Below are positions 31,458-61,196 of a stretch of 64,000 nucleotides of DNA, piece after piece. The first letter of the stretch is position 1, and every line of letters starts with the position of its first letter. The notes under the pieces are model-generated. The model ran no database searches. It saw only the letters and a program-made list of their open reading frames with translations, and was not told the origin of the DNA. The stretch is from Octopus vulgaris. Lineage: Eukaryota. The DNA is taken from assembly GCA_951406725.2 (NCBI GenBank), contig OX597823.1, positions 7,688,001 through 7,752,000 on the forward strand. The letters are read 5' to 3'. The translations under genes and the position numbers were made by a program.

Positions 31458-31688
31458 GGCGGCAAACTGGCAGAAACGTTAGCACACCGGGCGAAATGCT
31501 TAGCGGTATTGCATCTGTCGTTGCATTCTGAGTTCAAATTCCGCCGAGGTCGACTTTGCCTTTCATCCTTTCAGGGTCGATAAATTAAGTATCAGTTACG
31601 CACTGGGGTCGATGTAATCGACTTAATCCGTTTGTCTGTCCTTGTTTGTCCCCTCTATGTTTAGCCCCTTGTGGGCAATAAAGAAACA
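31458..31688 (+). mobile_element. tRNA-derived SINE family D with 15-bp TSD
   Basis: GGCGG..TGGCAGAAACGTTAGC..GAGTTCAAATTCC head. GATATGATTGCTGAA is duplicated at 31443-31457 and 31689-31703. Other copies at ~221-362(-), 30527-30718(-), 36372-36585(-), 38512-38732(-), 38767-38977(-), 48899-49110(+). Confidence 0.88.
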
Positions 31689-34346: not shown

Positions 34347-34391
<45 letters not shown>

Positions 34392-34415
34392 AAGGGTGAA
34401 AAGGAACACACGAGT

Positions 34416-34461
<46 letters not shown>

Positions 34462-34496
34462 AGGGTGAAAAGGAACACACGAGTTGATATATATAT

Positions 34497-34900
34497 GAAA
34501 AAACAAGTCAAGATAGAAAATGCTAAAATAATTTTATAAAGAACATTTCAGTACCGGTTTCGGTCATTTTGAGACCTTTTCAACTGTAACGATTAAATAA
34601 TTAAATTTAGAAAATTTAAAAGAAAAGTTTTTTTAAAGGAATATTTGTATTAGTGTTCAAATATAAGTGGCATTTTCCTTGTGTCTGCCTTTCTGTGCAA
34701 ACAAGAGAGACAGAGAAAGGCAGAATGCCACTTATATTTGAACACTAATACAAATATTCCTTTAAAAAACTTTTCTTCTAATTTTTCTAAATTTAATTAT
34801 TTAATCGTTACAGTTGAAAAGGTCTCAAAATGACCGAAACCGGTACTGAAATGTTCTTTATAAAATTATTTTAGCATTTTCTATCTTGACTTGTTTTTTC
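34497..34900. mobile_element. Fold-back element with ~180-bp inverted arms inserted in (TA)n; each arm has a hammerhead-like motif
   Basis: 34497-34674 is the near-perfect reverse complement of 34724-34900; flanked by TA runs. Confidence 0.85.
34811..34848 (+). ncRNA. Minimal type-I hammerhead ribozyme motif, U3-A8 variant (mirror copy at 34549-34586 on minus)
   Basis: CAG-TTGAAAA-GGTC(TCAAAAT)GACC-GAAA-CCGG-TA-CTG: stem I, core, stem II, GAAA, palindromic stem III, GUA triplet. Confidence 0.65.
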
Positions 34901-35178
34901 ATATATATATATATATATATCATCATCATTTAACGTCCGCTTTCCATGCTAGCATGGGTTGGACGGTTCAACTGGGGTCTGGGGAGCCCGAAAGCTGCAC
35001 CAGTCCAGTCAGATCTGGCAGTGTTTCTACAGCTGGATGCCCTTCCTAACGCCAACCACTCCGAGAGTGTAGTGGGTGATTTTATGTGCCACCGACACAG
35101 GTGCCAGACGAGGCTGGCAGACGGCCACGCTCGGATGGTGTTTTTATGTGCCACCGACACAGGTGCCAGATGAGGCTG

Positions 35179-35219
<41 letters not shown>

Positions 35220-35565
35220 AATATCAAATTGACAATACATTTCAATGTCTTAAAAACAAAGTCATCTAAACTAATTACTTAGTTGGGATTAGAATGGTGG
35301 AGCTAAATAAAATTTATTTTTAAAGTAAACCTAGACAGAATTTATTCGATTCTTGACAAATTTTACAATTTATATACTACTTGTTCAACATGGCTGGATG
35401 TTTAAAAAGTTTTGCTTCACAATATTATGGTGCCAGACTTGACTTCCACTATACAGGACATTGGTCAAGAGCTTTCTACTGTATATTCAAGTTGACCAAA
35501 ATATTATAACTGGAATTTGATAGATGGAAACGTTGGTTGTGTGTGTGTGCAGCATGGAGAGAGAG

Positions 35566-35600
<35 letters not shown>

Positions 35601-35659
35601 CACCATTTGATATGTCCCATGGCTTGACAGATTTCATGTATGAAGAATAGTTGAATCCT

Positions 35660-36330
35660 TTGAAATACAGGGCGCATTCCAGAAGTCTTGAGACATTTTT
35701 CAGGACAGACATGTATGAATTTCAAAGTAGTACAAATCTCTAATCTCCTTCAAAGTAGAATCCTCTGATTTCAATGTACTTGTAGTAGTACTCCAGCTAT
35801 TTCATTAAAGCCCTGTGGAAGTCCTCCAAAGTGAAGGTGCCCAGGACCCTTGTCACAGCCTCCTTCATCTTCTTCAGCTTGGAAAACAACCAAAAGTCAC
35901 CGAGAGCAAGGTCTGGGTTGTTGGCAAGGTGAGAGACAGTTTTGATGCCCATCTCTGTCAAATTATCAGGATGGAATTGTGGACTGGTCTTGTACAGGTG
36001 CTCTGAACTTTTACAACAAAATGTCTTCCAAAACTCGTTCAAAAACTCAACAGTGTACTCTTTGTTGACTGTATGGCCAAAGGGAATTCAGTGGATGTAG
36101 ATGATGCCCTTGCTGTTGAAAAACAAGACCATCATGAGTTTCCCAGTGAACCTGATTTGCCTTGCCTCTTGTGCTAGCAAAAAGACATGCTCAACTCATA
36201 CAAGTTAATCCATTGGCAGGTCTGATGCATTTTGTAAGTTTCTGTGGCATATTTGCCTAGTTTAACACTAAACCTTATTGCATAGTGAGCTTCCAAACTG
36301 CCTTCACGTCCCAACTGGATTCTAAAAACT
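35660..36330 (-). mobile_element. Degenerate mariner transposase relic
   Basis: SHLANNPDLALGDFWLF resembles the mariner HPPYSPDLAP.DF.LF motif. Confidence 0.7.
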
Positions 36331-36886
36331 AGTCACCTGTCAAAACAGTGTTTAGTAAGATGTATTCATATTATTTCTTTATTGCCCACAAGGGGCTAGA
36401 CATAGAGGAGACAAACAAGGACAGACAAAGGAATTAAGTCGATTACATCGACCCCCAGTGCGTAACTGGTACTTAATTTATTGACCCCGAAAGGATGAAA
36501 GGCAAAGTCGACCTCGGCAGAATTTGAACTCAAAATGTAGCGGCAGACGAAATACCTATTTCTTTACAACCCACAAGGGGCTAAATACAGTCGATTGAGT
36601 GAGATACATGATTAACTACATGGGTGACTAGGCTGTATCCCACTCTGCCAGATATTTTAAGCATCTTAGCAGTAATTCTTGATGGACCAGGGGCTTTTTT
36701 CATATCCTTCATTGCTTTACCTATCATACTGCTGCTAATTAGAACAAGGATAGCAAGTTCCTCTGTTGGGCCCATGTTAAGAACTCTCTCTCTCTCTCCC
36801 TCCCTCCCTCCCTTCCTCCCATGCATTCTCCATGGTGGTGGTGGTGGTGGTGATGGGTGATGATGATGATGAAGAAATCACATATA

Positions 36887-37280
36887 TCTTTATATATAAA
36901 AGTCAAGCTGTGTGTCTGTCTCCTACGATTTAGATTCCTAACTACTCCCACATTTTTCGGTGCAGTGTAACCAAAACCGGGTATCTTATAGTCGTCATTC
37001 ATATCGAGCCCTTCTGGGTATTAGCGCGCGTCTACGATGAGTCAACGATTTAAAAAAAAATTTACCATCAATTTTTCCCATTTTAAATGCATTTTTGGCA
37101 TATATAAGGGAAGTAACTCTCTAAAAATTTATTATTAAATCTCAGAACGTAAAAAGCTACAGTAACCCCTCCCCCTTTGTGGTTAGCCATATTGAGATGG
37201 CTATTATACTTCACATCTCTAAAAATGCTTATATAGTTATTTCCCTTACAAACCCGAGCAACGCCGGGCGATACTGCTAG
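36887..37280 (+). mobile_element. Non-autonomous Helitron, family C
   Basis: A|TC...CCCGAGCAACGCCGGG..CTAG|T. Confidence 0.87.
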
Positions 37281-37907
37281 TTTAAAATAAGAATACCTGG
37301 AAAAATATTTTGAACAAAACATCTGCAAAATGAACATAGCCAAAGACTGCTTAATGCTTTTTCAAGATTTACTATAAACTGTGCAACGTTATTGTTAATT
37401 ACTTGAGTCTCCAACTCGAGCACTGCTGGGTATTTTAGTTAATCATCATCGTCGTTTAACGTCCGTTCTCCATGCTAGCATGGGTTGGACGGTTCGACCG
37501 GGGTTCTGGGAAGCCAGAAGGCTGCACCAGGCTCCAACAAAAATATAATCAGACTTACTTCTTTTTATAAACTTTTTATTGATATACTCCTCACTAGAAA
37601 ACATACAACTGTTACGTGTCTGGAGTGAAATGTCGCCTGGAACACTGAGACACCAGGAAAGAACAATTCATAATTTGATGCATTCAATGAGTTTATATAA
37701 CATATGAAAATGACTGAGAAATTTAAAGTTCATGACAGTTTTAAATATGCAGAAAAATGGATGATTAAAGTAGTTAGAATTTTAAAATAACAGAAAAGAA
37801 AATACAAGCATATGAAAAAAAAAACAGGCCTATCAGGATTTTCAATCAAGTTAACAAAAACAGAAATTATACAGATTTCATATTTTACTATATTAATTTA
37901 CTAAATG

Positions 37908-37947
<40 letters not shown>

Positions 37948-38502
37948 GCCCTGATGCAGTACCAGGCAGTGGCTCTCATGGCTTCTGATCTTAACTGATT
38001 GGAAGTGTTATCATGTACATTGTTTTGTCTTGGTATAAAAGATGGGCTACAGCAAATATTCTGCTCAATACCACAGATTTGCTTGTCAGTTGTTTGACCT
38101 TAACCAGTTGAGCATGTCCCTTAGTGGCTGACGATATGTGCATCTCTGATCACGAGCAGAAGTAGTGGGAGAGCATCATAGCCATGTGTTGAGAGGGATT
38201 GATTGGGGTTTAAATAATTCACCTCTGGAAACATGGATGGTTCGTTCAACATCCTTAAACAACCCTTATTCAGGGACCTTTCGAGTGGGATGGGTTACTC
38301 GACCAGAAGAAAATTCTAACTGGGCCCCACCTGCAAGGTCATGTGCTGTTTATCTTGATATGAGATCACTATGTCGCGCACATATGGTTGTGATGCATGT
38401 GCCTGGTGTACCCTTATCAGACGGGTAGTCATGATGGGTATACTGGGCTTCGTATATCTTACCCCAGTGTCACTTTGATGGCATGCACTGCACTCTCACT
38501 CA
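37948..38502. repeat. GC-richer insertion bounded by (AAT)n on both sides, probable interspersed repeat
   Basis: Sharp compositional boundaries within an AAT microsatellite; single copy in this window. Confidence 0.45.
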
Positions 38503-38730
38503 ATAATAATCGTTTCAACTCTAAGCACAAGGACTGAAATTGTTGGGGAGGGGGGGACTAATCAATTACATTGACTCTACTGTGTAACTGGTACTTATTT
38601 CATCGACCTCCGTTTGGAGGTCAATGAGAGGCAAAGCTGACCTCAGTAGAATCTAGACTCAGACCATAAGGACAGACAAAATGCTGCTAAGTATTTCACC
38701 TGGTGCGCTAACGATTCTTCCAGCTCACCA

Positions 38731-38767
<37 letters not shown>

Positions 38768-39121
38768 CTTTACTACTGAAGGCACAAGACCTGGACTTTG
38801 GTGAGAAGAGACTTTGTCAATAAACACCAATCGCAGAGTTTAATTCATCAACCCTGAAAGGATGAAAGGCAAAGTCAACCTTGGCAGAATTTGAACTCAG
38901 AACATGAAGATGGACAAAAATGCTACCAAGTATTATTTTTGTCTGGCATGCTAATGATTCTACCAGCTCATTGCCTTAATTATAATAATAATGATGATGA
39001 TAATAATAATGAACTTAATGTATACAGTGCTCAGGGGCACTACAACTCATTAGAAAAAGATATGCACAAGAAATTAACAATGAATGAGTCATTTAAATAC
39101 ATATATATATATATATATATA

Positions 39122-39520
39122 TCTACCCTCTTGCGACTTGCCGCTTAACAAGCCATTCCGTTGGCGATCGCGGCCCGCTCAACATCGTTCTCCCTCTGCC
39201 GAAAAGGTAATTGTTTCCACGCCTGCTAGATAAGTTATTTTTGTCTCATTTTGTCTAAAGTCGTAAGACACCTGCTGTTAACCATTCTTGTTTTTAATTC
39301 TGTTTTCGTTTTTTTGTATTTATATTCGTCTCTGTTGCATTTTACATTCATTCCTTTTACCAAGAAATCTAATGCTCACAGCTTAGTTTTTCCTTGGGGC
39401 TGGCCGTGTTGGAGCAAATATCAGAATTAATCAGCCGAAATTTGCTATGATGATCCGGTTTCTGACTGAAGATTAAAGGCTTCGAATGACCTGTCTGTTT
39501 TCTGTGTTCGTCTCTTTATA
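39122..39520. mobile_element. Family E repeat inserted in (TA)n, unclassified
   Basis: Homologous to 1211-1480 and 62656-62865; all three copies abut TA runs. Confidence 0.65.
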
Positions 39521-39605
39521 TATAAATTTTTATATAATTATATATATATATATATACCAATAGCAAAATAATGAAAAATTTTTTAATTCATTTTAGTGTA
39601 ATACA

Positions 39606-39672
39606 CTACTCTTCATTTCCTTTCCGTTTGGTAAAATTTCCGAGTAAAGATACTAATTGAACTGCGGCAATC
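39606..39672 (-). CDS. TMEM241: TMEM241-like last coding exon (WIAAVQLVSLLGNFTKRKGNEE*)
   Basis: Strong polypyrimidine acceptor ttttctctctacag|G on minus; in-frame TAG at 39608-39606. Confidence 0.78.
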
Positions 39673-40061
39673 CTGTAGAGAGAAAAGAAACAATAAATAT
39701 GATGCTTCAAATTTGTTTCAATTTCTAGCTTCAATAAAATTAAAAAATTTTTTAATAATTTTTTCATTATTCACTTCTACTTAATAATGTCACGTCTACA
39801 AACATCTGCATTTTCACAAACTTTTTCCAACCAGTTCATGCTATAATTAGTGGTAACTTCAGTGGAAATTAAAGTACCTTAAATTCTATAAGTTATCTAG
39901 TGGCTGTGTGGTAAGTAGCTTGCTAACCAACCACATGGTTCCGGGTTCAGTCTCACTGCGTGGCATTTTGGGCAAGTGTCTTCTACTATAGCCCCGGGCC
40001 AACCAAAGCCTTGTGAGTGGATTTGGTAGGCGGAAACTGAAAGAAGCCCATCGTATATATG

Positions 40062-40094
<33 letters not shown>

Positions 40095-43000
40095 TTGTGT
40101 ATGTGTGTTTGTCCCCCTAGCTTTGCTTGACAACCGATGCTGGTGTGTTTACGTCCCTGTCACTTAGCAGTTCGGCAAAAAGAGACCGATAGAATAAGTA
40201 CTGGGCTTACAAAGAATAAGTCCCGGGGTCGATTTGCTCGACTAAAGGTGGTGCTCCAGCATGGCCGCAGTCAAATGACTGAAACAAGTAAAAGAGTAAA
40301 GAGTAATGCACAATCCATAAACACATCTGTGGGTTATCCTTTATCTTTTACTTGTTTCAGTCATAAGAATGTGGCCATGCTGGGGCACCACCTTGAAGAA
40401 TTTTCGGTGAATGAATCGGCCCTAGTACTTTCTTTTAAAGCCTGGTACTAATTATATCAATCTCCTCTGCTGAACCACTAAGTAACTGAGACATAAACTC
40501 ACCAACACCAGTTGTCAAATAGTGGTGGGAGACAGATACAGATATGATGAGTTTCTTTCAGTTTCCATCTACCAAATCCACTCATAAGGTTTTAGTCGGC
40601 CAAGGCTAAAGTAGAAGACACTTGTCCAAGGTGCTACGTTGTAAGACTGAACCCAGAACCATGTGGATTGGAAGCAAACTTCTACCACACAGCCACGCCT
40701 GCATTTTTTTCATTGTTCTGGACAAAGATCCAAGCATTATGTGATAATGAAGGAAAAACATGGACAAGGATGGAAATAAAAATGCGTAATATTATGGAAA
40801 TAGGAACTTGGAAGATCATAATGAAATTCGCTAGCAATACTGTTCTGCTTTATATATTTAGTTCTAAATCAATAATTTTGCAATTGAAAATACCATTCCC
40901 TCCCAACAAAAAGTGTCTGAAAAATCCTACCGTGCCTTATTTGTTTAAGTTCAAGCTTTGGACAGGCTGCTAACAAGAAGTGCTTTCGATGCTGTGGTGG
41001 CTTTACTGGTACCCTAAGTGAACCCCTACGCTATCCTTACAAGAGTGTTTCTCAAATTTCTTTAGAACGATTAGCAACTAAATATTACCAATTGCAAATA
41101 TAGTTATACACGTGTAATTATTGTAATAAATTACAAGTATAATTATACTGTACTTAATAGACATATTTGTGTCCACTGAAGCTGTACAGACAAAAAATGG
41201 GGAAAATACTGTTAAGTTTTTGGCATGCGAATGCTGTATCTGATCGTTGAAATTATTTTACTAAGATAACAATACATTACAGCAGTGCTTTCTTGATATA
41301 AATTACCACTTCAGTCATCATCATCATCGTTTAGCGTCCGCTTTCCATGCTGGCATGGGTTGGACGGTTCAACTGGGGTCTGTGAAGCCAGAAGGCTGCA
41401 TCAGGCCCAGTCTGATCTAGCAGTGTTTCTACGGCTGGATGCCCTTCCTAACACCAACCACTCCGTGAGTGTAGTGGGTGCTTTTTACGTGCCACCTGCA
41501 CAGGTGCCAGACAGAGCTGGCAGACGGCCATGGACGGATGGTGCTATTACGTGCCACCGGCACAGGGGCCAGGCGAGGCTGGCAATGGCCATGAACAGAT
41601 GGTGCTTTTTACGTGCCACCGGCACGGAGGCCAGTTGGGGCGGCGCTGGCAACGGCCACGATCGGATGGTTCGCTTACTTGTCACCGGCACTGGTATCAC
41701 AGCTGCTATTTCCATTGATGTTGATCGGCTTCGATTTTGGTTCTGCATTCTGATATCTGATTTGATTTGGTTTGAATTTGATTTTGATTTTGATTTTTGA
41801 TTTTCTTGATATAAATTACCCCTTCGGTAACTTTATAAAAAGAATAAAGACACAGGTAACTGTAATAAAGAATAACAAGGGATGTAAAAAAAAAACCGTT
41901 AACATCTCGGCGAAGGCCAGTGGTGATATTTGGTAGTGTTATGTAAGCAGCTTAGCCTATCAGGATAGTTTACCAAAGAGTATCAGTCAACATTTTCATA
42001 ATTTCTGTATATATGAAAAATTTATAACCAGAATATGAACGGTCATGTAGTGATAGATAAATTGGTCAAGCACCGAATGTGAGACAGGGGTTACCTACAT
42101 TTTTATTTTCTTGAGAAAACCGAGGTGCATCTTTATATGTCCGTAGGTAGAGTAATCGAAGATATACATTCCATTAGTTACTTAATGTAAGGGAGACAAC
42201 AATGTTACTTGAAAGAGAGAGAGAGAGAATGCGTACAAGGACAATATAAGGGAGGTAACTGCGATGTTTTCGCTAAACGACTGTTACCTGCTGAGAAGTA
42301 TTTAATTCGGCGACTCGAGGGTGATAAGACGCACACTATAATTAACAAAGTACATTTTAGAAAAGATGTTTTTGATGATCTATAAACATATCGAAGTTTT
42401 GTTTTGTAAAAATGACTAGTTTAGTTGCTATTACGTAGTGTAGTAAAAAGGTAATGTCAGCTAAATAACTAAACTGACATCTAAAGCATGGTGTCTCTTG
42501 CAGTGGTACTTCTGCTTGTCGACAAATAGTGTTTGAAGCCAGTAAATCCTTGAAGACTTCTTATTAAGAAGGTGGCAAGCTGGTAGAAACGTTAGCACAC
42601 CGGGCGAAATGCGTAGCCGTATTTCGTCTGTTGTTACGCTGTGAGTTCAAATTCCGCCGAGGTCGACTTTGCCTTTCATCCTTTCGGGGTTGATTAAATA
42701 AGTACCAGTTACGCACTGGGGTCGATGGAATCGACTTAATACCTATGCCTGTCCTTGTTTGTCCCATCTATGTTTAGCCCCTTGTGGGTAATAAAGAAAT
42801 AGGTACTTCTGCTCGTCGACAAATAGTGTGTGAAGCCAGTAAATCCTTGCAGACTTCTGATTAAGGTGGCGAGCTGGCAGAAACGTTAGCAGACCGGGCG
42901 AAATGCTTAGCTGTATTTCGTCTATCTTTACGTTCTGAATTCAAATTCCCCTGAGGTCGACTTTGCCTTTCATCCTTTTGGGTGTGATAAATTAAATATC

Positions 43001-46000
43001 AGTTGCATATTGGGGTTCATCTAATCAACTGGCCCCACTCCCCCAAAATTTCAGAATAGTAAAGAATACTTTACTAAACTAATAAATATGTTAACCATTG
43101 TACTAGGATATAGTTATTACCTGTGAATTATAACTGTAGGCTTATATAAGAAGACAAGGATTCTTGTAAGGGTTGCATCCAACCGTAAAAATTTAATTTT
43201 AGCACTTGACCTTTTCGTGATAAGACATAGGATGATTTGGCTGTTTATTCCTGAAAAAAAGTGCATCTTTAGCACCATGGAAAATAGTAAAACAAGAAAT
43301 AGTTGGAATGATGCACATTTAGTTATGATTTAGGAAATAGATGTAACTTTTTTTTAAAATTAGGTCAAATAAAATTGACACAGTGTATAACTATTGCAAT
43401 TCTACTGTGGCAATTATCAGGAGAATTTATGCAATTGTGGCTGTGATCATGATGATAGAGACATTAGTGATTGTGTATTTATAATGAGTAGAAAAAAAAT
43501 ACTAATTACCAAATGTTATGTTCAGCTGTCGTATGGAATTCAAAAAATAGTAGTGATAGAAAACTTGCCATAATCTACACAGGTAGAGACAAAAACAGTT
43601 AATTAGATAATTATTTACAATAAACATTTACTGTTACTCAACTCAAAATGAACATATAAACAAATATTTAAATGACATGATTGGTTTTAAGAATCAAAAT
43701 ATCATCCATACATTTCAAAGAATTTACGATTATTTAATCAGAAATTTGGAATAAAACCTATTTACCACCTAGATATACTGAGGTAAGTAGGTTAAAGTAT
43801 CTCATCTAAATCTACAACACAGTTTAGGCTTCAACTCATGATCTTAAGATTAGTAATCCAGCAGCTAAAACAGTAGGAAAACTGAGCAAAGTATATTATG
43901 TCAGGTAGTAGGTAATTATTGTAAAAGAAGGTATTAACATCACAGAGGTACACTTGCAAAACAAGTGATTTGATCAGAGACTATGTGTTGGAACTGAAAT
44001 GATTGCAGCATTTTCATCACATGAAGCTATGACCTGGTCCCTGACAGCAGTTTGTAGTAATAACAAAACAAAAAAAATATATACAGTTTGATATGCAGCC
44101 ATATACCAAATAATCATGATCTGGCTCGTGAATGCCTTTGGCAGAGTTTACTCTGTTGCAATCGTTGAAACCGGAGGGTTTGAGGATAGCCTGGAAGCTG
44201 TGGTTTACTCCTCCTTTCCCCACCACACCAGTTTCAGAGACCCTACATTAAGATCAAAGATACTGCCCTTCTTTTGTGATCTCAATTCAGAGCTTCCTTT
44301 CTTAAAACAGTATATTTTAACAGAATTTCTGAAGTAAAGATTATTTTAAAATGATAAAGTTTGAGAAGTATCAACATTATTTTCTAGAGACAAGATATAT
44401 TAATTACATACTTATTAAACAATAAGGGTTATACAGAACACTATATATATTTTTTCACTTCTTTTCTTCATCAAAGCTTTGTAAAAATTTACATAAGGAT
44501 ATTTCATCTTGCAAAAGTTATATAGCAATGGAAAACTGCAGAAGAATTAAGTGATAGAAAGTAGAATATTTTCACTATTTTTACAAACAATACATTGAAT
44601 AATATCTCATTGCAGATGTTACTTAAATCTCTGCACAAAAATTGAAGTTTAAGAATAAAATCTTTCATCAGACCACTTCTCAAGAAGAAGCAAAAATGAC
44701 CAAATATATTTTAACTTGCAGACAGAATTGAAATCAGTCTATGGTTTTTAGTTACTTCTGGTTTATGAAACATAAATTGACAAACTTGAAGCATCTGCTT
44801 CTTGTGGTGTATCCAGAAGATTGTTTTCCTATAAAAATGCAACTGCTGTTTTCTCTATCAAAATGACACATATTTGGAAATCTTTTAATGGCATTATAGT
44901 GGGTAAAATGTGTTACACTGATGGTTATCAACTTCAATTTGAAGAGGATGTAGGCGTTGGATTATTACTCTTTTACATAGACAAGTCAGGGGCATTCAGG
45001 TCAGAAAGGTAGAAAGAAAAATAAGCATGGTCAGGAGCACTCGGGTTAAAAGGGTTAAAAAAAAAATAGGTAAGCACAGGTAATAAATTCCTACCATGAA
45101 AGGTCACATTCAGGTCAAAAGGGTAAAACAAAAATAAGTAAATAAGTATGGTCAGAAAAGCTCAAGTCAAAATGGTAATCGAATGGTATAGTCAGAAGCA
45201 CTCAGATCAAACGTGTAAAAGAAAAAAAATAGGTAAGCACAGGTAATAAATTCCTACCATGAAAGGTCACATTCAGGTCAAAAGGTAAAACAAAGATAAA
45301 TATGGTCAGAAAAACTCAAGTCAAAATGGTAATCGAATGGTATAGTCAGAAGCACTCAGATCAAATGTGTAAAAGAAAAAAAAAAGGTACGCACAGGTAA
45401 TAAATTCCTACCATGAAAGGTCACAAAACCTGCTGAGGTCTCAGTAAACAGATCATGTTATTTCACAGCACGGACTACTGACACAGCAGCAGACATTTAC
45501 TAAAGTAGCACCAAAAAGATTCTATTAATGAAACATGGAAAACATTTCAATAAATCTAAAAAAACAAATTCTGGAAACTTACATGTGCTATCGGAAGCAA
45601 TCTGTTATAAACCAAAAATTCAGAATTCTCCTGAAGACTTATTCGTAACAAATTCAATATAGTTCCTAAAATTCCACTTAAAAATACATAGAAATAAAAG
45701 TATTAAAAAATTACTTTTAAAGTCATTTGAATTTTAATGAATTCTATTTTTAAGAGATTTTATTAAACTAAAGTTAGCTATAAAACATGTAAATTATAAT
45801 GGATGGAAGCACTCCGTCAGTTACGACGACGAGGGTTCCAGTTGATCCGAATCAACGGAACAGCCTGCTCGTGAAATTAACATGTAAGTGACTGAGCACT
45901 CCACAGACACGTGTACCCTTAACATAGTTCTCGGGGATATTCAGCGTGACACAGAGAGTGACAAGGCCGGCCCTTTGAAATACAGGTACAACAGAAAGTA

Positions 46001-49000
46001 AGAGTGAGAGAAAGTTGTGGTGAAAGAGTACAGCAGGGATCACCACCATCCCTGCCGGAGCCTCGTGGAGCTTTAGGTGTTTTCACTCAATAAACACTCA
46101 CAACGCCCGGTCTGGGAATCAAAACCGCGATCCTATGACCGCAAGTCCGCTGCCCTAACCACTGGGCCATTGCGCCTCCACAAATTATAATAAACCTGAT
46201 TGCAATAGCTGATCAATAAGTACTCAGACTGTTGCCATAGTAATGTAGTTAAAGCATGCAGAGTGAAGCCACTCTGTTCATTCAAAGCTGGCAAGGTTCA
46301 ATTATAGAGTAAATATGTAACAAAAATAAAGCAAATATATAAATACATAAAACTAAGAGTTGATTTCTTCCGAAACATTTAGTTCTATGTTACATAGGTT
46401 GTTATGAAATGAGGTGGATTCATAACAACAAACTATAATCAAAATAATATAAAAATGTATAAAAATAATAAAAATATTAAGTACTTACCTTGCAAGGCAA
46501 CCCATATAAAATTTATATAAATATAAGTGTTTGAAGTTAGCTGCTTCAAAAATATCTCCTGTAAGAAAACAGTTGTATATATATATCTATCAATATTTTC
46601 ATTATCACATGTAACAGGTAGATCCTTTCATTTCCATACCTTTTTTCTAGTCTTAATTTGTTTTCAAATTTTCTAATAACCCCAATGCTATATATTTAAT
46701 GATATCAATGGAAATAGTAGTTGTGATACCTGTGCCGGTGGCACATAAAAAGCACCATCCGAACGTGGCCGATGCCAGCACCGCCTCGACTGGCTTCTGT
46801 GCCAGTGGCACATAAAAAGCACCATCCGAACGTGGCCGATGCCAGCACCGCCTCGACTGGCTTCTGTGCTGGTGGCACATAAAAAGCACCATCCGAACGT
46901 GGCCGATGCCAGCGCCGCCTTGGCTGGCTTCCGTGCCGGTGGCACATAAAAAGCACCATCCGAACGTGGCCGATGCCAGCGCCGCCTCGACTGGCTTCTG
47001 TGCCGGTGGCACATAAAAAGCACCATCCGAACGTGGCCGATGCCAGCACCGCCTCGACTGGATTCTGTGCCGGTGGCACATAAAAAGCAACATCCGAACG
47101 TGGTCGATGCCAGCACCGCCTCGACTGGCTTCTGTGCCGGTGGCACATAAAAAGCACCATCCGAACGTGGCCGATGCCAGCACCGCCTCGACTGGCTTCT
47201 ATGCCGGTGGCACATAAAAAGCAACATCCGAATGTGGCCGATGCCAGCGCCGCCTCGACTGGCTTCTGTGCCGGTGGCACATAAAAAGCAACATCCGAAC
47301 GTGGCCGATGCCAGCACCGCCTCGACTGGCTTCTGTGCCGGTGGCACATAAAAAGCACCATCCGAACGTGGCCGATGCCAGTGCCGCCTTGGCTGGCTTC
47401 CGTGCCGGTGGCACGTTAAAAGCACCAACCGATCGTGGCCGATGCAGACCCCCCCCCATGGCACCTGTGCAGGTGGCACGTAGAAAGCACCCACTACACT
47501 CGCGGAGCGGTTGGCGTTAGGAAGGACATCCAGCTGTAGAAACACTGCCAGATCAGACTGGAGCCTGGTGCTGCCCCTGGCTTCCCAGACCCCGGTCGAA
47601 CCGTCCAACCCTTGCTAGCACGGAAAACGGACGTTAAACGATGATGATGATGATGATGATGATGATACAACTACAAACAAAATAACTGCCAAATTTTCAA
47701 TGATGCATTTATTATCTTTCTCTGTTTTTCTCTCTAAACTTTACAGCAATTGTTAGTTATACCTCTCAGTAATTATAACCAGAAAAATTATCAGGAAATG
47801 AATTGTTGTCTATAATTCATCCTGATCATTTCAGTAACACAATAAGATTTTCTGATATCTTGTCCTAAAATAAAAACCAGTCTTAAATAATAATGATAAT
47901 AATGAAATTATTTTATACAGTGCTCAGGTGCACCACAACTTGTCAGAAAGTGCATATAAAGTACATGCAGTAATGTAAAAATGTCTGGAAAGCGAACAAT
48001 GTATGAGTCAGATACATGCTTGTGTGTGTATGGAGGGGAGAAAATCAGGTGTAGTGTTGGTGAATCTCAGAAAGCATGGAAGTTTTGACGGATGCAGTGC
48101 TCCGACAACTAACAACTGATGCTGGTTAAAGAAACTCATGGTCTGCATTGAGAACAATCTCTTAATAAAATTTGCAAATTAGGATAAATTCAAATGACAG
48201 GGAGAGACAAGAACAGAGTATTTGATATTCTCACCTCTCCATTACATGTATACATACACTTATCTAAATTTGAATAAGATCATTTGCCTTGGAAAGACAA
48301 TAATTGTGTATTCAGTATTTTCAATTTCTGACAGCATAGACTGCTTGTTTAGTTTAAGTACCTTGAAATGTGAAGGCACATGGCTCAGTGGTTAGAGCAT
48401 CAGGCTAACAATCATGAGATAGTGAGTTTGATTCCCAGATCAGGCTGTGTGTTGTGTTCTTGAGCAAGACACTTTACTTCGCATTGCTCCATTTCATTCA
48501 GCTGTAGAAATGAGTTGCAACATCACAGGTGCCAAGCTGTATTAGCCCCTTAATCTTTCCCTTGGATAATATTGGAAGGGTGGAGAGAGGAGACTGGTAT
48601 GCATGGATGACAGCTGGTCTTCCATAAACAACCTTGCCCGGACTTGTGCCTCAGAAGAATAAGTACTAGGCTTAAAAAAATGTTCTGGGGTTGATTTGTT
48701 CAACTAAAACCCTTCAAGGCGGTGCCCCAACAGGGTCACAATCAAATAACTGAAACAAGTAAAAGAAAATATTTGACAAAAATCAATTAAATATAATGAT
48801 TCTTCTGCTGATTAATATAAAGTATTCGTAATTAAAAACACATACACAAGAGCATCCCACACAAGCACATAGGATATTTAATATATTCTTTATAGAAGTT
48901 GATGGGCTGCCAGAAACGTTAGCATGCCAGGCAAAACGCTTAGCAATATTTCATGTCTTTTACATTCTGAGTTGAAATTCCGCTGAGGTCAACTTTGCCT

Positions 49001-50778
49001 TTCATCCTTTCGGGGTCGATAAATTAAGTACCAGTTGCAAACTGGGGTCGATCTAATCGACTGGCCGCTCCCCCAAAATTTTGGGCCTTGTGCCTAGAGT
49101 AGAAAAGAATATACACACTTCTGAGATGGTAAAATAAAATATACTGTCAAGTTAAGATTAATTTCTAAAAAATGTAATGACCTTACCTAAAAGGTAACTG
49201 CCCGGAATGAAGAAAATTACACTGAAATATGTAAAGATTAAACAATCAAAATACAATAAATAATATATTTATAAATTGGTAAATTTTATTCTACATTCTG
49301 CATTAAAATAATGCTTATGTTAGGGAGTTAACTCAATCAATTACATTCCTTCCCAATAAAATCTGGCTTATAAAGTGTAAGAAAGCATTAATGAGCTTAG
49401 CCATAGAAAAGGAATTATAAGTGGCAACCCAAATCCTGACATAGTTTCAATTTCTCTTTGAATCTTTTTCATTTACAATGTTAAAGCCTTTGGGAAAAAC
49501 ATGAATATTGTACTTTCCTTTTTCTTTAAAAATATGGTATACAAAATGATATCAAATGTTCCCAGACTCTCTCTTTCTCTTTTCTCTCTTTTACTTGTTT
49601 CAGTCATTTGACTGCGGCCATGCTGGAGCACTGCCTTTAGTCGAGCAAATCGACCCCAGGACTTATTCTTTGTAAGCCCAGTACTTATTCTATCGGTCTC
49701 TTTTGCCAAACCGCTAAGTTACGGGGACGTAAACACACCAGCATCGGTTGTCAAGCGATGTTGGGGGGACAAACACAGACACACAAACATATACACTCAC
49801 ACTTATATATATATATATATACATATATACGACAGGCTTCTTTCAGTTTCCGTCTACCAAATCTACTCACAAGGCATTGGTCAGCCCGAGGCTATAGTAG
49901 AAAACACTTTCCCAAGGTGCCACGCAGTGGGACTGAACCCGGAACCATGTGGTTGGTAAGCAAGCTACTTACCACACAGCCACTCCTGCGCCTAACTAGT
50001 TATGTTTAGTAAAAAAATAACTTATTTACCAAAGTTTTAACATCACACCCTTCGAAATAGTCACCTTGTGCAGCAATATACCTGTCCCAGTGTTCCTGCC
50101 ACTTTTGGAATCTGGGAAGTTGTTTTCCGTAAGTGGATCAAGAACCTTCCGTGATTTGCTCTGGATCTTGACAGTGGTGTTAAAACAGCGACCTTAGATC
50201 TGGATATTTATCTTGAGGAAGTGATGAAAGTCTGCAGGTTCTGTATCTGGTGAATAGCGGAGGTACAGAAGTGATTCCATGTTGTTTTTGGAGATAAATT
50301 TATGAGTGAGGAGGGCTCGGTGACAGGGTGCATTGTCATTGTAATGAATTCTTTGTGCTTCACAGATCCAGTTGCCTTCACCAAATGTCCTCCCTCCAAT
50401 GCTTCAAAACATCGTTGATTGTCCTCCAATGATCCTCATGCACAAGCTGAGGAATTTTCTAAATCAATGGAAATTGTAGTTGTGATACCAGTGCCGGCGG
50501 CATGTAAGAGAACCATCCGAATGTGGCTGTTGCCAGCACTGCCCCCACTGGCCTCCGTGCTGGTGGCACGTAAAAAGCACCATCCGATCGTGGCCGTTTG
50601 CCAGACTCGTCTGGCACGTAAAAAGCACCCACTACACTCACGGAGTGGTTGGCGTTAGGAAGGGCATCCAGCCGTAGAAACACTGCCAGATCAGACTGGA
50701 GCCTGGTGCAGCCTTCTGGCTTCCCAGACCCCAGTTGAACCGTCCAACCCATGCTAGCATGGAAAGCGGACGTTTTAC

Positions 50779-50809
<31 letters not shown>

Positions 50810-53800
50810 CCCAGGGGTGACGCTTGTGGAAGATCTTCCAGATCGCTCATCATATTCCAGGGATGTTCTTCTGCTTTTGAAGCCCCTGTGCCACTCGAAA
50901 CATTGTGTACAACCCATTGTCTCATCACCATAAACTTGCCAAAACGTGCTCAATGTCTTTGTAGCAGACTTCCCAAGTTTAACACAAAATTTCCCGTTGG
51001 CACTTGTTCCTGTCCATGACAAAATCACAGACCACAGCTTCCACATGATCACAAAGACACAAATTTCACAACTTGCTAAGTAAACATAGCGATGTCACTC
51101 GCCACATTGCCTCGTGGTGGTCACTGCGAGCTCTCACTGCGCATGCAGCCATGTGCTGCCATCTGATGATGCACTACAGAACTAATCAGGGAACTTTTTG
51201 ATACCACCTCATATTTGTGATTAGATGATGATGATGATGATAAACAAGAAGCCAATGATGAAGTGCAGTGCATGTTCTTGAAATATGAAAATGGTGACCA
51301 AGAGGCTCCACAGAATTTCGTTTTGTATCCCCTTAGCTTCTGTTTTAATGAGTTTGACTTAAATGAACATAGAGTGTAGTGTAGTAAGAAATTTGCTTCC
51401 CAACATGGTTCTAGATTCACTCCCACCATGTGGGACCTTGAGCAAGTGCCTTCTGCTATAGCCTCAGGCTGACCAAAACCTTGTGAGTGGATTTGGTAGA
51501 TGGAAACTGAAAGTAGCTTTTCGTGTGTATGTGTGTCTGTCTGTCTGTGTCTTTGTGTCTGTGTCTGTGTGTGTGTGTGTGACCACTGCTTTACAACCAT
51601 AACTTAACAGTTTGGCAAAAGAGACCAACAGAATAAGTACCAAGCTTTAAAAGAAAATAAGTACTGTGATTGATTAGTTCAACTAAAATTCCTCAAGGCA
51701 GTGCCCCAGCATGGTCGCGGTCTAAAGACTGAAACAAGTAAAAAGATAAAAAAGAAAAAGCTGAATTGCATTCATTTTGCATATAAGAGGCCAATTTTTT
51801 ATATATATTAATGAGAATTACCAAAACTTACCTGAATATATAATTATAGTAAAGTAATTCAATTTTACTGAAAAAAAAAATAGTAGAAGTAGTTTGATAA
51901 ATAAATAAAAGTATTCTTGGAAAAGTTTTAGTTTTAAAAGTTGAGTACTTAGATTCTTTTTATTTCTCTACTTTTGCTCTATGTCAAGATAAAGAGCTAA
52001 ATTTAAGACAGAACTGGAGATCACTCACCTCTTCCTAAGACTAGATGTAACTGGTAACTATTTTTCACTACAATAACTTTCACAAAACAGACAACATTAA
52101 GAACAATCCTTGCGGCAGGATTTTCCTATCTTCAATTCTTTACCTTTCACTGACCCCAAAATTTGTTTCCTAAATCTAGGATATCATACCCTTAATACTG
52201 TGCACAATTGAACAATACTACCATAGTAGCTTTCGATGAATAAACACAACAGTAGCTGCACACTATGAACGATGTTTCAGTATTGTTGACAGCATTGTCA
52301 TCTCTTATTATAAAAGGCAGATTTTATCTGCCTCCCTTTGGGAGTTATACAAATCTACAATATAGGATTTCTTCAATTACAATTTACCTGGCATTTTTAA
52401 GAGTACAATGCATCGCGTCATGCCAGGTCCAGTTTTTAAAATTTAAACTCCAATTAAGCAAAATTTACAGAAAACTCACATTCTGGTGTGTGTGTCAAAT
52501 GCTTTTCTTAGTCTGGTTTACACCACACGCAAACGCACACACACAGTGGGCAACGAATAAAATGAAAGTAAATAGCGGACAGAGTGATTTGAGGAAGACT
52601 AAAGTGAAAGTATTCTGTCTATGACGATGATAGATACATGAGTAAAATGTATGGGAAGCTAAGAGCTAAGAGTGAGTGAAAATGTTCTTGGAAGAGAGTA
52701 ATTAGTAATAAAGTAAACATACACTCATACATACATACATACATACATATATACATACACACACACACACACATACACACACACATACATACACACACAC
52801 ATACATACATACATACATATACATACATACATACATATACATACATACATACACACACACACATACACACACACACAGTATTGAAGCTTGAGAACAATCA
52901 GATACATTTGCAACACATCTGTTGAAAATATTATTGTTCACACACATACATATACATATATACATACAGACAGACAGACAGATAGACACACACACACACA
53001 CACACATGATCCAGCATGGCCACAACCTCAAGGCTGAAACATATAAAAGAATAACAGAATATAAATGTGTGCAAAGTACAAGAAATATTAATGCAGTATA
53101 TGGGGATTGGACAATAAGCGTAAGGCAGTGTCAATGGTGGTTCCAGAAATCCCGAGCCATAAACTACAGCCTAGAAGACGAGCCTCATCCTGAAAGATCT
53201 GTAGAACTCGACAAGGACATCCTGAAAACCCTGGTGGAACAAAATATCATCGTAACTGTTGAGGAACTAGCAGAGAAGCTTGGATTTGGTCATTCAACCA
53301 TTCATTGACACCTGTGTGCTATCGGAAAAGTCAGCAAATTGGGTCAATGGGTTCCTCACGAACTTTCCGAGTCTAATTGCATGCAGAGAGTGAATGTATG
53401 CTTTTCTTTGCTGTCATATCTCACCACTACTGCGCTATGTATATCTATATATATAAAACTGTAGTTGTGTGAGTGTCTGTCCCCTTCGATTTAGATTCCT
53501 AACTACTCCCACATTTTGCGGTACAGTTTAACCAAATTCGGGTAGCTTATAGTCGTGATTCATATCGAGCCCGTCTGAATATTAGCGCGCGTCTACGATG
53601 AATCTACGATTTTAAAAATAATTTAACATCATTTTTTATTCCATTTTAATGCATAATTTTTCGTGTGTCGATGGCGGCGGAGTTGGCGTCCACGCTCACA
53701 TCTGCACCTGTGGGGAAGGGAGTGTAAGGAAATCAACGTCGTAATGCGTTGTCAAGGAGACCAGTGTTCTTTTAGAACAACGACTTCATGGCTTCAAGAC

Positions 53801-56800
53801 ACCAAAACAGAAATGGCTAAGAAAGCGTCTACATGAGTCTACGATTTAAAAAAAAATTTACCATCGTTTTTTTCCATTTTAATGCATTTTTTCGCTATTA
53901 TATAAGGGAAGTAACTCTCTAAAAATGTCTACGATGAGTCAACGATTTTTAAAAAAAATTACCATCATATTTTTTCCATTTTTAATGCATTTTTTGCTAT
54001 TTTTTGGCTATAACTCTCTAAAAATGCTTATATAGTTATTTCCCTTACAAACCCGAGCAACGCCGGGCGATACTGCTAGTTACTAATATTAACTAAACTA
54101 GATATTAAAAAAATACACTAGCAAAAATTCCATCTACAAAAGCCATTATATTTGGAAGAGAAATATTGGAATAAAATATGCAAGATAGAACTTGATTGAT
54201 TAAAATAATAGAACAATAACATTTATATTACCAGAAGTTAATTGCAAATTACCAGATAATGAGATCTGTGCCAGAATCAGACTACAGATATATGACAGTC
54301 ATAATCAAGTACTCCAAAAGAGTATATAGATTGAGGCATGTTATATACAGAATAAGCTAAATTTAATAGTTATCGCCATACTAATATGGCAGTCTATAAA
54401 TATAAGACTAAAGCTGTCGCTGATTAGCTCCAAGAGGCCATCGCCTCTAGCTAGCTATATGACACACGAACCTGCGTCCATTACAATCTTCGAACAGGGG
54501 AGGTCAGCCGCTTCACCTTGCTAGTCAGACATCTGCAGACATGTTTCAGGGTTGTTGCCCTTTATCAATGCAGCGTAGTCAGAGCCAGCAGGTGTTGCTA
54601 CTGTTCGAAGGTTGTAATGGACGCAGGTTCGTGTGTCATATAGCTAGCTAGAGGCAATGACCTCTTGGAGCTAATCAGCAACAGCTTTAGTCTTATATTT
54701 ATAGACTGCTATATTAGTATGGCGATAACAATTAATATCCAGTAATGCTGCCGTAATCTCCTTTAGAGAGACTTAGTAATTTTAATATTTCTATTAAGCT
54801 AAATTTAGTTTTATCCGAAGAGTTATTCACAATTAGGCAATCAAAGGTTTTTGTCTGTGAAACATATTTTCACGCAACCATTTGTTTCAACTACCAATCA
54901 GGAATCAGTTGCTAATATCAGTTGCTAGATTTAGGAAACAAATTTTTGGGTTAGTGAAAGGTAAAGAATTGAAGATAGGAAAATCCTGCCGCAAGGATTG
55001 TTCTTAATGTTGTCTGTATAAGGATGTTGTCTATATAAGGATGTTCTAGTGTAAAATTAGCAGAACAAATAATTTGGAAACAAAATCAATTTGGGAATAC
55101 AATATTTTTTCAGATTTGATATAGAAGAAGAACAGGCAGATAGTAGGTAGATGAATGATAACCAAAGCACTGGTTTGGAGAGCAATTATATTGTAAGAAC
55201 TGAGTTGGAGTGTCACATAAGAGTGATTATAAAAGCTATTTGAATATATGTAAGCAAATAAGCAAAATAGATGTAAGAAAATTATTTGATTTTACTGCAG
55301 ATATGAACTGACCATAATCAATTAACTAAAGTGTGCTTAAATAACATATTAAATCAACAAACAAGAATGTCAATACAGATAGTAAAACAAAAAAATACAA
55401 TGATATTAAATTACAAAATTAGTTAAGAAAATATTTTTAGAATTGGTTATTAATAATAGATGGCAGGCAGAACTAAAAGACAATCAAACAGTAATCTGTG
55501 AGGGTTGATAAGAAGGAACTGTAGCATAAGAGAGAGGAGAAAAGTTTTTAGATAGATCATAAGAAGCAGTCAAACATATTTTGAAATGGCATAAATATTG
55601 CAATGGTCTTAAATCACTGCCATAACAAAAACTATTTTCTTTTTTAAGAATTAAAGGCTGTGTATGAAAGCTTTTCACTGCAATGGGTGATAGATGATAA
55701 TACAAAAAATATGGCCTTTGTTAGAGATAACTCTAAGAATCTGTACAATTTCTTTAATGAACATTTTACATATAAAGTAAGAGTGAACCAATGAACTTCA
55801 AAATCTACTGTGATAAGTTTTTCAATTATTTAACAGTTTACTAACTTTTTCACTTACTACATTGTGTAAAATGGTTAGAATTAGAAAGGACATCCAACTG
55901 TAGAAATCATGCCAAAGCAGACAGTCCTTTGGCTTACCAGTTCCTGTTAAACTGTCCAACCATAGCAGTATAGAAAATGGACTTTAAATGGGGATGATTA
56001 ACAGGAGAGCTGGATATTGCAAAAGGATTATCATTGTATTTGATGCATAAAAGATTTTGGAAAGAGCACAAAGGACAAATAGAGATATAGCTAATTATCC
56101 TTATTTGTATCTGCTAAGTTTCTTTGCTCAAATTTTAATAAAACAGGACATTAGAATTTGAATGTCTCCAAGTTTCAATTTCAGTCTATTTAAACATCTG
56201 TTTTATGGGTTTTAAATTTCAATTGAAACTTTATAAATAAAAAATAAAATTCAAGATCTGATTTAAAATTACATTGTTCAATAAAGATTTATTTACTATT
56301 ATAGTGTAATCTTGGCCAATCCTTTTGAGACAGGAATTTTTGTTAAAATACATGTATTTTTCTGTCAAACTGATATATTTTTTAACAGGAAAGCTCTAGT
56401 AAAAGATATGTAAATAAATACCTTGCTTCTATGATATCTTTATTGAATTCAATAAATACCACAATAGCACCTGGAAGAAAAAATAATTTCTTTTCAAAAT
56501 GATGTATTTAAATTAATTAATGTTCAAATAACTTTATCATGATATTTCAAATTAATAAAACAATAACCTATTTTTTTACAAGGAAACCAAAGCTTTCTTT
56601 GCAACCTTGGGGCTTCGGGTTCAGTCACACAGCACAGCACTTGGTCAAATGTTTTCTACAATAGCCTTGGGTTGACCAATGCCTTGTTAGTGAATTTGAT
56701 ACAAAGAAACTGTGTTGAAGCCCGTCATTTATATATGTGCGCATAAAAGAGAGAGAGAGAGAGAGAGAGAGTGTGTGTGTGTGTGTGTGTGTGTCTGTCT

Positions 56801-59800
56801 CCCAACCATCTCTTGGCAACTAGCCTTGGTTTGTTTACATTCCTGTAACTTAGTGATTCAGCAAAAGAGACTGATAGAATAAGTATCAAACTTAAAAAGT
56901 AAAGTACTGAGGTCGATTTGTTCAACTAAAACTCTTCGAAGCAAGTTCCAGCATGGCCGCAGTCCAATGACTGAAATGAGTAAGATAAGAGACACACATG
57001 TGCGTGTATGTGTGTAAAAGGACTTACTACAAGTTTATTCATCTACTATGCATTTATTAAAGTCTGTGTGTGTGTATGTTCATCTTCTCTCTCAAACATT
57101 CTCTCCCTCTCTCTCTCTCTCTCTTATTTGCCTCTAGCACTTGAGGGAAACCTTTTAACCCTTTAGCATTTAAACCGGCCATATCCAGCCAAAAGTATTT
57201 TACCTGTTTTATGTTCAAACTGGCCAGATCTAGTCTCTCACACCAACCCTACAATATCATTCTAAAAATTAACAGCTACCTCATCAAAATTTCATAGCTC
57301 CAACATAATGCATGATTAGTTCAAAACAATGTGGATAAAAAAAGCATTAATTTTGGCAGAATAATGCGAACACTAAAGGGTTAAACATTTGGAAATATTC
57401 TTTTATAGGCGACTCTTTCTGCTGACTACTCTTGCACATCTGCTATGGATGAGGTCTTTCTTTTCTTTCAGCCTAAATATGATACCACTGTATGTCTTGT
57501 GTACCTACAACAGTTTACACTAGGTACACTGCATGGCATTCCTACCTACCTATTTACTACATATCAAGCATAGGCATTTTCCAGATGACAGCAGGGTTCT
57601 ACTAACTTAAACTTTTGTCATTGCTAGGTTTAATTTTGGACTTCTTAATTTTTAGGCTTTGTTTCCATTTTTGAAATATCTTCTTTAAGTCTTTAATATT
57701 GGGTTGTCAGGAAAGTTCGTGCCGATTTTTAAAGGAAAGAAAAAGGGCAATAAATACTTGCCATTACATTTTTAATCAACCATATATGAACCATTTTGTT
57801 ACACAATGCATCTCCATCTTTCCTTTAACTTGAAAATACCCGCTTCCCAGAATTGAGTTGGTTTCATGGCAATAATTTATCAAGGTATCATTTTACGTCA
57901 TCCAAGGAATTGAAATTTTTACCATAAAGACTATTCTGCAGAGACCTGAATAAGTGGAAATCCAAAGGAGCAATATCTGGTGAATATGGAGGGTGGGGTA
58001 ACACATCCCAGCCGAGCTGCAGCAATTTTTGTCTGGCTCCCAAGGCATCAAGTGCCGAAAATGAACTTTCTTATCTTCCATTTTAAAGGGTTACAGAATT
58101 AACACAGGTTATAGGAACATAAACCTTCTTCCATGAAAAGATAGCTTAAACTGTGCTCTAAATGGAGGTGTAGTCAAATCCTATTTTATGGACTCAACCA
58201 TGTTCTAAAATAAGTCGAAAGATAAGGTACTATAAATCGGCAAGAACTTTCCAGACAACCCAATAGTTTCAGCTTGAGAATTGGATCTGCAACATGCAAA
58301 CGTTCTCACAGATACCTAGTCTTGTTATGGCATGGAAATCTGTAAAAATCAAACAGGATAAAGATGAGAACTGAGCCCTGATGGGCCCTGATACCAGCAG
58401 GCTAGATTTTTTACTGAACCCATCAGTAACTCAAACCTTGCAAAAGGGAAAGGACCTTTGTTGCCAATAGTAGTAGTAGTTTACTGAACTTTCTCAAACC
58501 CATTCTTACTCTAGCTACTATACTACAGAGTAACCATCTTCCTCGCTAATTACATAAGCAAACGTTATCAACACAGACACACAGCCATCCTGACATTTAG
58601 GAGAATAAACACCAATGTGTTCAGAGTGCATGCATCTACTACGAAGCTTACATTCCCTGTTAGCTTGCCTGTGATTCCACTACATCTCTTGTCTATCCAT
58701 AGCTTACACTGAGTATACAATGTATGGAGTTTACATGTAGCCCTTTTTCTGCGTATCAAGGTCCTGTCTTTTTCCCTACTTACTAAAACTGTCGTCTTTG
58801 CTAAGCTTACCTTAAGTTCTAGGTTTAGCTTCCAAGCCTGGAATTTTCTTTCTAATTCCCCAATAAATTCAGCTATGAGAACAAGACCATCACCATATAG
58901 GAATTCCTATGAACATCCATTCTTAAACTCCTCATTGATAGCCTATCAGGCAATGATGAATAGGAAAGGACTGAGGATTGAACCATGATGGACCTCTATC
59001 CTCACATTAAATTCTTCACTGAAATTGTTGTTGACTCTCACTTTATTTACTGCATCTTTGTACATAGCTTGTACAGCCCTCACAAGCTATTCATCTACAC
59101 AGAGTTTCCTTTGTGACTACCAAATTACTGAATGAGGTCCTCTGTCAAATGCTTCCTCTTAGTCAATGAATGCCAGGAACAGGAGTTTACCCTGTTTTTC
59201 CAAGTATTTCTTCTGCAGTTGCCTTACTACAAAATTGCATTCGTGGTACACCTTCTGAACATGAAGCAAAATGCATCTCATTTACGTCCACTCTATCACA
59301 GATCAATTGTGCTTTGACTTTCTCTATGACCTTCATAACTAGTTCCAGTAGTTTGAATTTTCTCCATTGTTGCCTCTCTCTAATGCATCTCCTTTGCCCT
59401 TGTAACTGTTTATGATTATCATCATCATCATTGTTCGACCGTGGTCGAGACAATGGAATTTACCATGCTACGCCAGACTTCACAGTCCATCATGGCATTA
59501 CGAAGGTCCTGTTGCTGGATACCTGTATCCCTGGAGATTACATCAGGGTAGGAGAGTGTGCGCCCTCTGGTATTGCGAGTAGATGGCTTCCAGAGGAGGA
59601 GAGTAGAAATTACCTCTTTTTCAGCTCTACAACAATGTCCAGCAAACTGGACTCTCTTACCTTTCACAAGAGATGACACAGGTGGTAGAGATACGGTACA
59701 ACTAATAATAACTTTCAGGAGATACAGTAACATCTATATAATAAATATTATTCCATAAATTTGGTGGTTCACTATGTACAAGCATTACAATAACTAATTT

Positions 59801-61116: not shown

Positions 61117-61196
61117 GCGCCCGCCCGCCCTACCCACCCCCACCACCAATACCGGATATCTCTATTTTGCTCCAACTATACCGGATGTCGTTTTCT

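Follow-up and report, generated by a model that had tools for sequence, protein, structure and literature searches.

Hammerhead motifs in the window

The window, by which we mean the whole 64-kb stretch of Octopus vulgaris DNA under analysis, carries hammerhead ribozyme motifs in two repeat families, family A, assigned below to the Penelope-like elements (PLEs), and family B, which appears to be of the retrozyme type. The features are as follows.

34458..34487, minus strand: 'tail' extension of family A, on the inverted arm only; a second tail copy lies at about 34390-34418 between TA runs
34489..34690, minus strand: inverted copy of the family A 3′ end, 95% identical to L061; with the direct piece it makes a foldback of ~430 bp
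34549..34586, minus strand: inverted copy of hammerhead A, identical in sequence, on the opposite foldback arm (descriptor match)
34695..34908, plus strand: 5′-truncated 3′ end of family A, ending in a TA run, with 98% identity to the same end of L061, a copy that has the ORF
34811-34848, plus strand: hammerhead A, with stem I CAG/CUG, stem II GGUC/GACC, palindrome ACCGGU and a GUA site
34811-34813 with 34846-34848, plus strand: stem I of hammerhead A, followed by core UUGAAAA at 34814-34820 and stem II at 34821-34835 (descriptor match)
34836-34838, plus strand: GAA of hammerhead A, then palindrome ACCGGU at 34839-34844; predicted cleavage 3′ of A at 34845 (descriptor and dimer fold)
54363..54603, minus strand: partial monomer of the B unit, about -35 to +206 from U3, 96.7% identical to the unit in L049
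54533..54573, minus strand: hammerhead B, with stem I CUGCA/UGCAG, stem II AGGG/CCCU, palindrome ACAUGU and a GUC site
54568-54562, minus strand: core UUGAUAA of hammerhead B; predicted cleavage 3′ of C at 54538 (descriptor match)
54601..54796, plus strand: inverted 5′ piece of the B unit, unit positions 72-267, 94% identical

The motifs were located with a structural descriptor (stem I - N3 UGA N N8 A - stem II - GAAA - stem III - UH - stem I, leaving the bases at 3 and 8 free) that was run on both strands over the whole 64 kb. It returned three matches only, all with a U3-A8 core and all with a 6-nt palindromic stem III, which amount to two insertions because the foldback of A doubles motif A. 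Palindromic U3A8 matches occurred in none of 300 dinucleotide shuffles of the window, and the mean number of U3A8 matches of any kind was 0.02. The two families with a UUGANAA core that had been proposed by a sequence-only reading of the window, each with the stems listed above and a palindrome of 6 nt, are therefore real by this measure, and they are indeed unrelated in sequence: the 3′ end of family A and the B unit showed no detectable shared sequence (best blastn E 1.7), nor a common 3′ signal. The same reading was right that the motifs are invisible to a canonical descriptor, as a search for CUGANGA alone would miss U3-A8 and an Rfam scan of the window, with 47 rows at E≤1, listed no family of hammerheads.

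Both motifs contain the N3-UGAN-N8-A core with a 3-8 base pair, the GAAA and the UH, and U3-A8 is an accepted natural variant of this core. An extended, bulged stem I is predicted for the hammerhead, and the predicted lowest-energy cofold of two A copies is a dimeric hammerhead. For B, the palindrome duplex is worth -4.6 kcal/mol and there is competing pairing in the core; in the predicted minimum of the cofold the U3 and A8 region is extended into an alternative pairing with the GUC and is not the clean active form. On each testable feature both motifs are minimal type I hammerheads, predicted to self-cleave.

The window contains other repeats as well. Nested long inverted repeats at 30037-31887 (arms of 229 nt and 199 nt, 96-97% identity) gave no hammerhead match and are possibly a foldback or MITE. 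Tandem arrays with a 62-67-bp period lie within a common SINE-like repeat at 46730-47491, 14839-14989 and 41477-41634 (11.4 copies at 46730), and at 59995-62322 a 374-bp triple repeat is followed by a 155/156-bp alternating array of 98-99% identity. Short frames at 50462-51094 (minus), 52892-53305 (plus), 24172-24561 (minus) and 58571-58906 (minus) resemble mariner transposase and LINE reverse transcriptase fragments, and there is a tRNA-like match at 5553-5624.

Motif A belongs to a Penelope-like element

The window copy of family A consists of a 214-nt 3′ end and a 202-nt inverted copy with its tail. This locus is predicted to fold into a single long hairpin, which in a read-through transcript would bury motif A, so that the window copy is likely inert in place.

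Genome-wide, the family A pattern has 2,452 matches (control 0). From 1,650 initial candidates of a DNA search 40 were scored and 30 loci used, a set that includes the window itself and in which two loci are the same site. A same-strand PLE open reading frame (ORF) of at least 170 aa lies upstream in 11 of the 30, ending ~700 nt before the motif. The ORF of L061, itself 5′-truncated, encodes 634 aa with a reverse transcriptase domain (RVT_1, E 5e-8) as well as, at its C terminus, a GIY-YIG domain (E 4e-4) whose score of 21.1 bits is slightly under the Pfam cut-off of 22.6; L061 also has a CX4CxxC linker and CCHH residues, and its 5′ side is occupied by a 1,061-bp inverted copy of its own 3′ end. 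Family A 3′ ends stop at one common point in all 30 loci, where a TA run (21/30) or a shared tail (9/30) follows. An inverted piece is found no more than 150 nt from the 5′ end in 8/30 loci and further out in two more, and in five extended loci (none full-length) the 5′ copy was inverted or absent. The marks of endonuclease-bearing (EN+) PLEs, namely 5′ truncation, an inverted 5′ copy, a tail and a microsatellite target, are all present in family A. Family A may be Neptune-like; the CX2-5CxxC linker, present in L061, is shared with Nematis (PMC8557442).

L108, L110 and L111 hold related ORFs (similarity judged by eye) with other U3-A8 hammerheads, and U3-A8 was therefore likely inherited across this PLE group. 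Compensatory change in stems I and II of family A was seen by eye only, across related families. In further U3-A8 families (L113, L114 and L111 at 2274) stem I and the palindrome are kept, with stem II either weak or followed by an additional base ahead of the GAAA. At L061 3277-3630 (minus strand) a family A element borders, at its inverted end, on a U3·G8 retrozyme dimer whose palindrome is 8 nt long; similar retrozyme-PLE junctions at L102 and L066 suggest common target sites or co-mobilisation.

Motif B recurs once per unit in a non-coding tandem repeat

The window copy of family B comprises two thirds of a unit and a 196-nt inverted piece, of which 135 bp are complementary to the main piece, so that the hammerhead falls in the loop. 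B has 271 strict matches in the genome, and the wider U3 retrozyme group has 3,322. Of 1,832 candidates 40 were scored and 30 loci used, and in none of these 30 is there a PLE ORF of 170 aa or more on the same strand. The sequence downstream of the motif is instead repeated upstream of it, which defines a unit of 360-364 nt; over all the units examined, the head-to-tail length is 353-364 nt, each unit having one type I hammerhead, no ORF and a GC content of 0.40-0.50. Relatives of B form arrays of 4-5 units, while 16/30 B loci have an inverted 5′ piece and 17/30 a TA run at the end. Predicted circular folds were more stable than shuffled sequence in 5/5 B units (z -4.0 to -9.4, 40 shuffles each). 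Contigs of four runs that we guess to be RNA cover the B unit, with head-to-tail joints in two of them, a result that tandem genomic copies give equally. Judged by unit size, hammerhead, GC content and self-pairing, B is a non-coding tandem repeat of what its sequence indicates to be the non-LTR retrozyme type.

The PLE that lies beside L035 was considered as the parent of B and rejected, since 19 other loci of its family have no B-unit match among the matches listed; that family is also ruled out by a C3-G8 hammerhead of its own, with a 3-bp stem III, in 13/19 loci. The search of the 30 B loci and of the L035-type PLE identified no autonomous partner of B.

Paired cores dominate the genome-wide counts

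The 2.8-Gb genome (227 contigs) was scanned with a pattern that forces a 6-nt stem III segment and in which only positions 3 and 8 were varied between counts. Under this pattern we counted 11,750 matches for U3A8 (reversed control 330), 1,546 for C3G8 (142), 888 for U3G8 (204) and 610 for C3A8 (202). Above control, the paired cores (11,420 + 1,404) thus exceed the non-paired ones (684 + 408) more than tenfold; the sequence-only reading would have been undone by U3A8 hits no more frequent than shuffled sequence or non-pairing cores, and the counts came out the other way. By eye, ~8 recurring stem II types cover almost the whole of the first 100 U3A8 rows, so that the total is owed to a small number of families that have been amplified. 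Again by eye, ~12 of the first 100 C3A8 rows and ~10 of the first 100 U3G8 rows resemble family A types that have decayed by a single step. The expectation that the variant would be abundant across the genome therefore held in so far as 11,750 matches were found, but the density extrapolated from the window was too high: at the average density of the genome, 64 kb would contain 0.27 matches to the U3A8 pattern, a value that the window exceeds ~11-fold.

The predominance of U3-A8 is bound to this pattern. In a blind sample of 80 evenly spaced 10-kb stretches (800 kb), searched with a relaxed descriptor, we found 13 C3G8, 12 U3A8, 3 C3A8 and 1 U3G8 motifs against 2 in the reversed control, numbers that are small and clustered, and five more copies of the C3-G8 motif of a second PLE family were seen only by sequence match. 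In 13/19 loci of this second abundant family (150 scored of 12,783 protein candidates) the hammerhead is canonical, C3-G8 with a stem III of 3 bp, and the short stem III makes it invisible to the 6-nt stem III pattern. An overall excess of U3-A8 over C3-G8 of 8:1 was accordingly dropped, as the second PLE family and the blind sample make it valid for the 6-nt stem III pattern only. The counts indicate that roughly one in two hammerhead-like motifs of the genome, or fewer, is U3-A8.

The second PLE family (L132-L154; e.g. L148 near 3398 on the element strand, and L154) has many open frames of ~727 aa as well as tandem and inverted copies, and its hammerhead combines a canonical CUGAUGA with a 2-bp stem II closed by a GCAA loop and a 3-bp stem III. 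More C3-G8 families, with stem III segments of 8-16 nt, occur at L155-L234 (e.g. L174, L180, L168, L172, L212) and recur in the blind sample.

Sister retrozyme subfamilies occupy all four 3-8 states

The shared U3-A8 of the two window motifs had been read as covariation, a claim that does not stand, because two families that both have U3-A8 display no covariation; the real case is found in sister subfamilies elsewhere in the genome. L077 (C3G8) and L105 (U3A8) are 88.7% identical over 372 nt. In an alignment of 13 hand-picked retrozyme hammerheads from related subfamilies, base pairs fill 97.6% of 169 cells, both partners vary in 10 of 13 pairs, and the 3-8 states are UA in seven rows, CG in four and UG in two; within the B group, 8/9 stem I/II pairs change on both sides. 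None of 500 shuffles reached these values, although kinship among the rows inflates this test, and structures slid along the alignment scored far lower.

A retrozyme tree with positions 3 and 8 masked (21 rows, 215 columns) requires at least five changes of state, and its starred branches force three changes for U3A8, with the same result from a 14-row tree. L084, L086 and L094, which lack element homology to the group, and the near-duplicates L037, L045, L100 and L104 were left out. Along one branch the U·G rows are outermost, followed by U-A and then by a C·A cluster with C-G rows nested inside, in a midpoint-rooted tree whose last two forks have support of 80/90 and 89/84 only.

All four 3-8 states are thus represented among sister subfamilies, with ~240 U3·G8 and 26 C3·A8 copies. 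The U3·G8 subfamily (G000, L102-L104) has 76 U3·G8 and 24 U3-A8 cores among the first 100 of 320 matches, and in the C3·A8 subfamily (L119-L130) 26/30 matches share one loop, at ~19 loci that include a tandem trimer. Since both have spread, copying does not strictly require a perfect 3-8 pair, and the amplification of both non-Watson-Crick states counts against strict selection for that pair. The G000 subfamily at L102-L104 also has a U at the cleavage position, with about three quarters of its cores in the wobble form.

Discussion

Taken together, our results make it probable that A and B represent the minimal type I hammerhead in its published U3-A8 form and would self-cleave as dimers, A in the 3′ end of a PLE with reverse transcriptase and GIY-YIG domains and B once per ~360-nt non-coding, retrozyme-type tandem unit that PLE enzymes likely mobilise. 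A more tentative proposal, which we rate at somewhat below an even chance, is that the retrozyme superfamily has undergone a stepwise 3-8 walk from U·G to U-A to C·A to C-G, in which each state, including both non-Watson-Crick ones, was amplified as its own transposing subfamily and U3-A8 became the majority state among the palindromic-dimer hammerheads of the lineage.

Chance matches in AT-rich repeat DNA might be suspected from the ease with which loose core expressions match in the window, yet the absence of palindromic matches from 300 shuffles and family patterns with hundreds to thousands of matches against controls of 0 refute this explanation. The proposal of a ribozyme class missed by canonical searches was not upheld either. 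The high abundance of U3A8 and the lack of an Rfam hammerhead match in the window would suit a distinct, undescribed class with UUGANAA, but all other hammerhead features are canonical, subfamilies 88.7% identical differ as C3G8 versus U3A8, and U3-A8 is already on record in nature (PMC3088659) and in PLEs (PMC4209133), so that we regard such a class as very improbable. Earlier work has described the core variant as well as both types of element, and the motifs are abundant new examples of them.

It is unlikely, but less so, that the hammerheads are weak or dispensable passengers whose core drifts to A/U in an AT-rich genome and which spread regardless of cleavage. The spread of the U3·G8 and C3·A8 subfamilies, including the C3·A8 tandem trimer, fits this explanation, as do PLE insertion in vitro without need for the hammerhead (PMC11167929) and the proliferation of hammerhead-less Naiads (PMC8557442). 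Against it stand the more than tenfold excess of paired over non-paired cores above control (11,420 + 1,404 versus 684 + 408), and stems I and II that covary around an otherwise invariant core across subfamilies just 60-89% alike. We give a similarly low probability to family B being the pseudo-LTR of an unsampled autonomous PLE and not a free retrozyme. PLE-type ends and inversions in B agree with such an origin, the B search scored 40 of 1,832 candidates, and a preprint argues for a derivation of animal retrozymes from pseudo-LTRs; on the other side, a PLE ORF of 170 aa or more on the same strand occurs in 0/30 B loci, the sequence upstream of the B hammerhead is another copy of the unit, relatives of B are pure arrays of 4-5 units, and the PLE next to L035 comes from a family with a different hammerhead of its own.

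Natural U3-A8 covariation was described by Perreault et al. (2011, PMC3088659), who, with reference to Przybilski and Hammann (2007), call this form active in vitro. Our hammerheads show the same 3-8 covariation, but where those examples are, as presented there, rare, here we find thousands of transposed copies and amplified U3·G8 and C3·A8 cores. With a search pattern made for U3-A8, Cervera and de la Pena (2014, PMC4209133) report ~1,300 matches in PLEs of S. mansoni versus ~2,000 canonical ones, a mixture that the one seen here resembles. Akin to the S. mansoni hammerheads of that account, those of the octopus combine a PLE terminal-repeat position, a U3-A8 core, close pairs on opposite strands and a palindromic stem III, implying dimers; unlike them, they have a 4-bp stem II without the 5′ bulge typical of Schistosoma, the copies are young, near-identical and ~ten times more numerous, and U3-A8 dominates the subclass with a 6-nt palindrome.

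With the Neptune/Nematis-type EN+ PLEs described by Craig et al. (2021, PMC8557442), family A shares the C-terminal GIY-YIG, the CX2-5CxxC linker, the CCHH residues, 5′ truncation, an inverted 5′ copy, a 30-40-bp tail, (TA)n targets and a hammerhead near the 3′ end. Cervera and de la Pena (2020, PMC7229834) give mussel non-LTR retrozymes as 350-390-bp repeats and do not mention cephalopods in their main text. B resembles the metazoan non-LTR retrozymes covered there and in a preprint (bioRxiv 10.64898/2026.07.22.740005) in the size of its unit, a single type I hammerhead in each, lack of an ORF, a GC content of at most 50%, a self-paired predicted circle and PLEs alongside; it differs from them by its U3-A8 and mixed cores, by occurring mostly as 1-2 units with 5′ inversions, and by being known here from DNA. 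We found no paper on these motifs in octopus, and earlier work may still report U3·G8, C3·A8 or cephalopod cases.

We propose that the palindromes of two hammerheads, on one transcript or two, would pair into a 6-bp stem III, and that RNA cut behind its GUA (A) or GUC (B) would yield either element RNA or monomers of the unit, perhaps as circles. The released RNAs may then be copied into (TA)n by the reverse transcriptase and endonuclease of PLEs, with 5′ truncation and template switching producing the foldbacks; the window copies would be truncated insertions of this kind. As U3-A8 preserves the 3-8 pair, catalysis would persist, and U3-A8 would be abundant because several master lineages with this core were amplified. 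On their own, minimal PLE hammerheads show weak cleavage in vitro, and in a vertebrate PLE hammerhead mutants showed no loss of in vitro insertion, no reads ended at the site, and the hammerhead needed its protein to cleave (PMC11167929). This hammerhead-independent insertion and the weak minimal cleavage, together with the competing fold of B and the spread of non-Watson-Crick cores, speak against our proposal.

For surveys of ribozymes, the consequence is that CUGANGA-only descriptors overlook about half of the hammerhead-like motifs here (12 U3A8 versus 13 C3G8 in the blind sample) and most palindromic-dimer hammerheads of this genome, and censuses of such genomes therefore need both cores. 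Near-identical sister retrozymes with C-G, U-A, U·G and C·A cores also offer ready constructs for asking whether PLE-dependent transposition needs hammerhead cleavage and, if the 3-8 walk is true, it would constitute a natural allelic series on how much self-cleavage the spread of a retrozyme needs.
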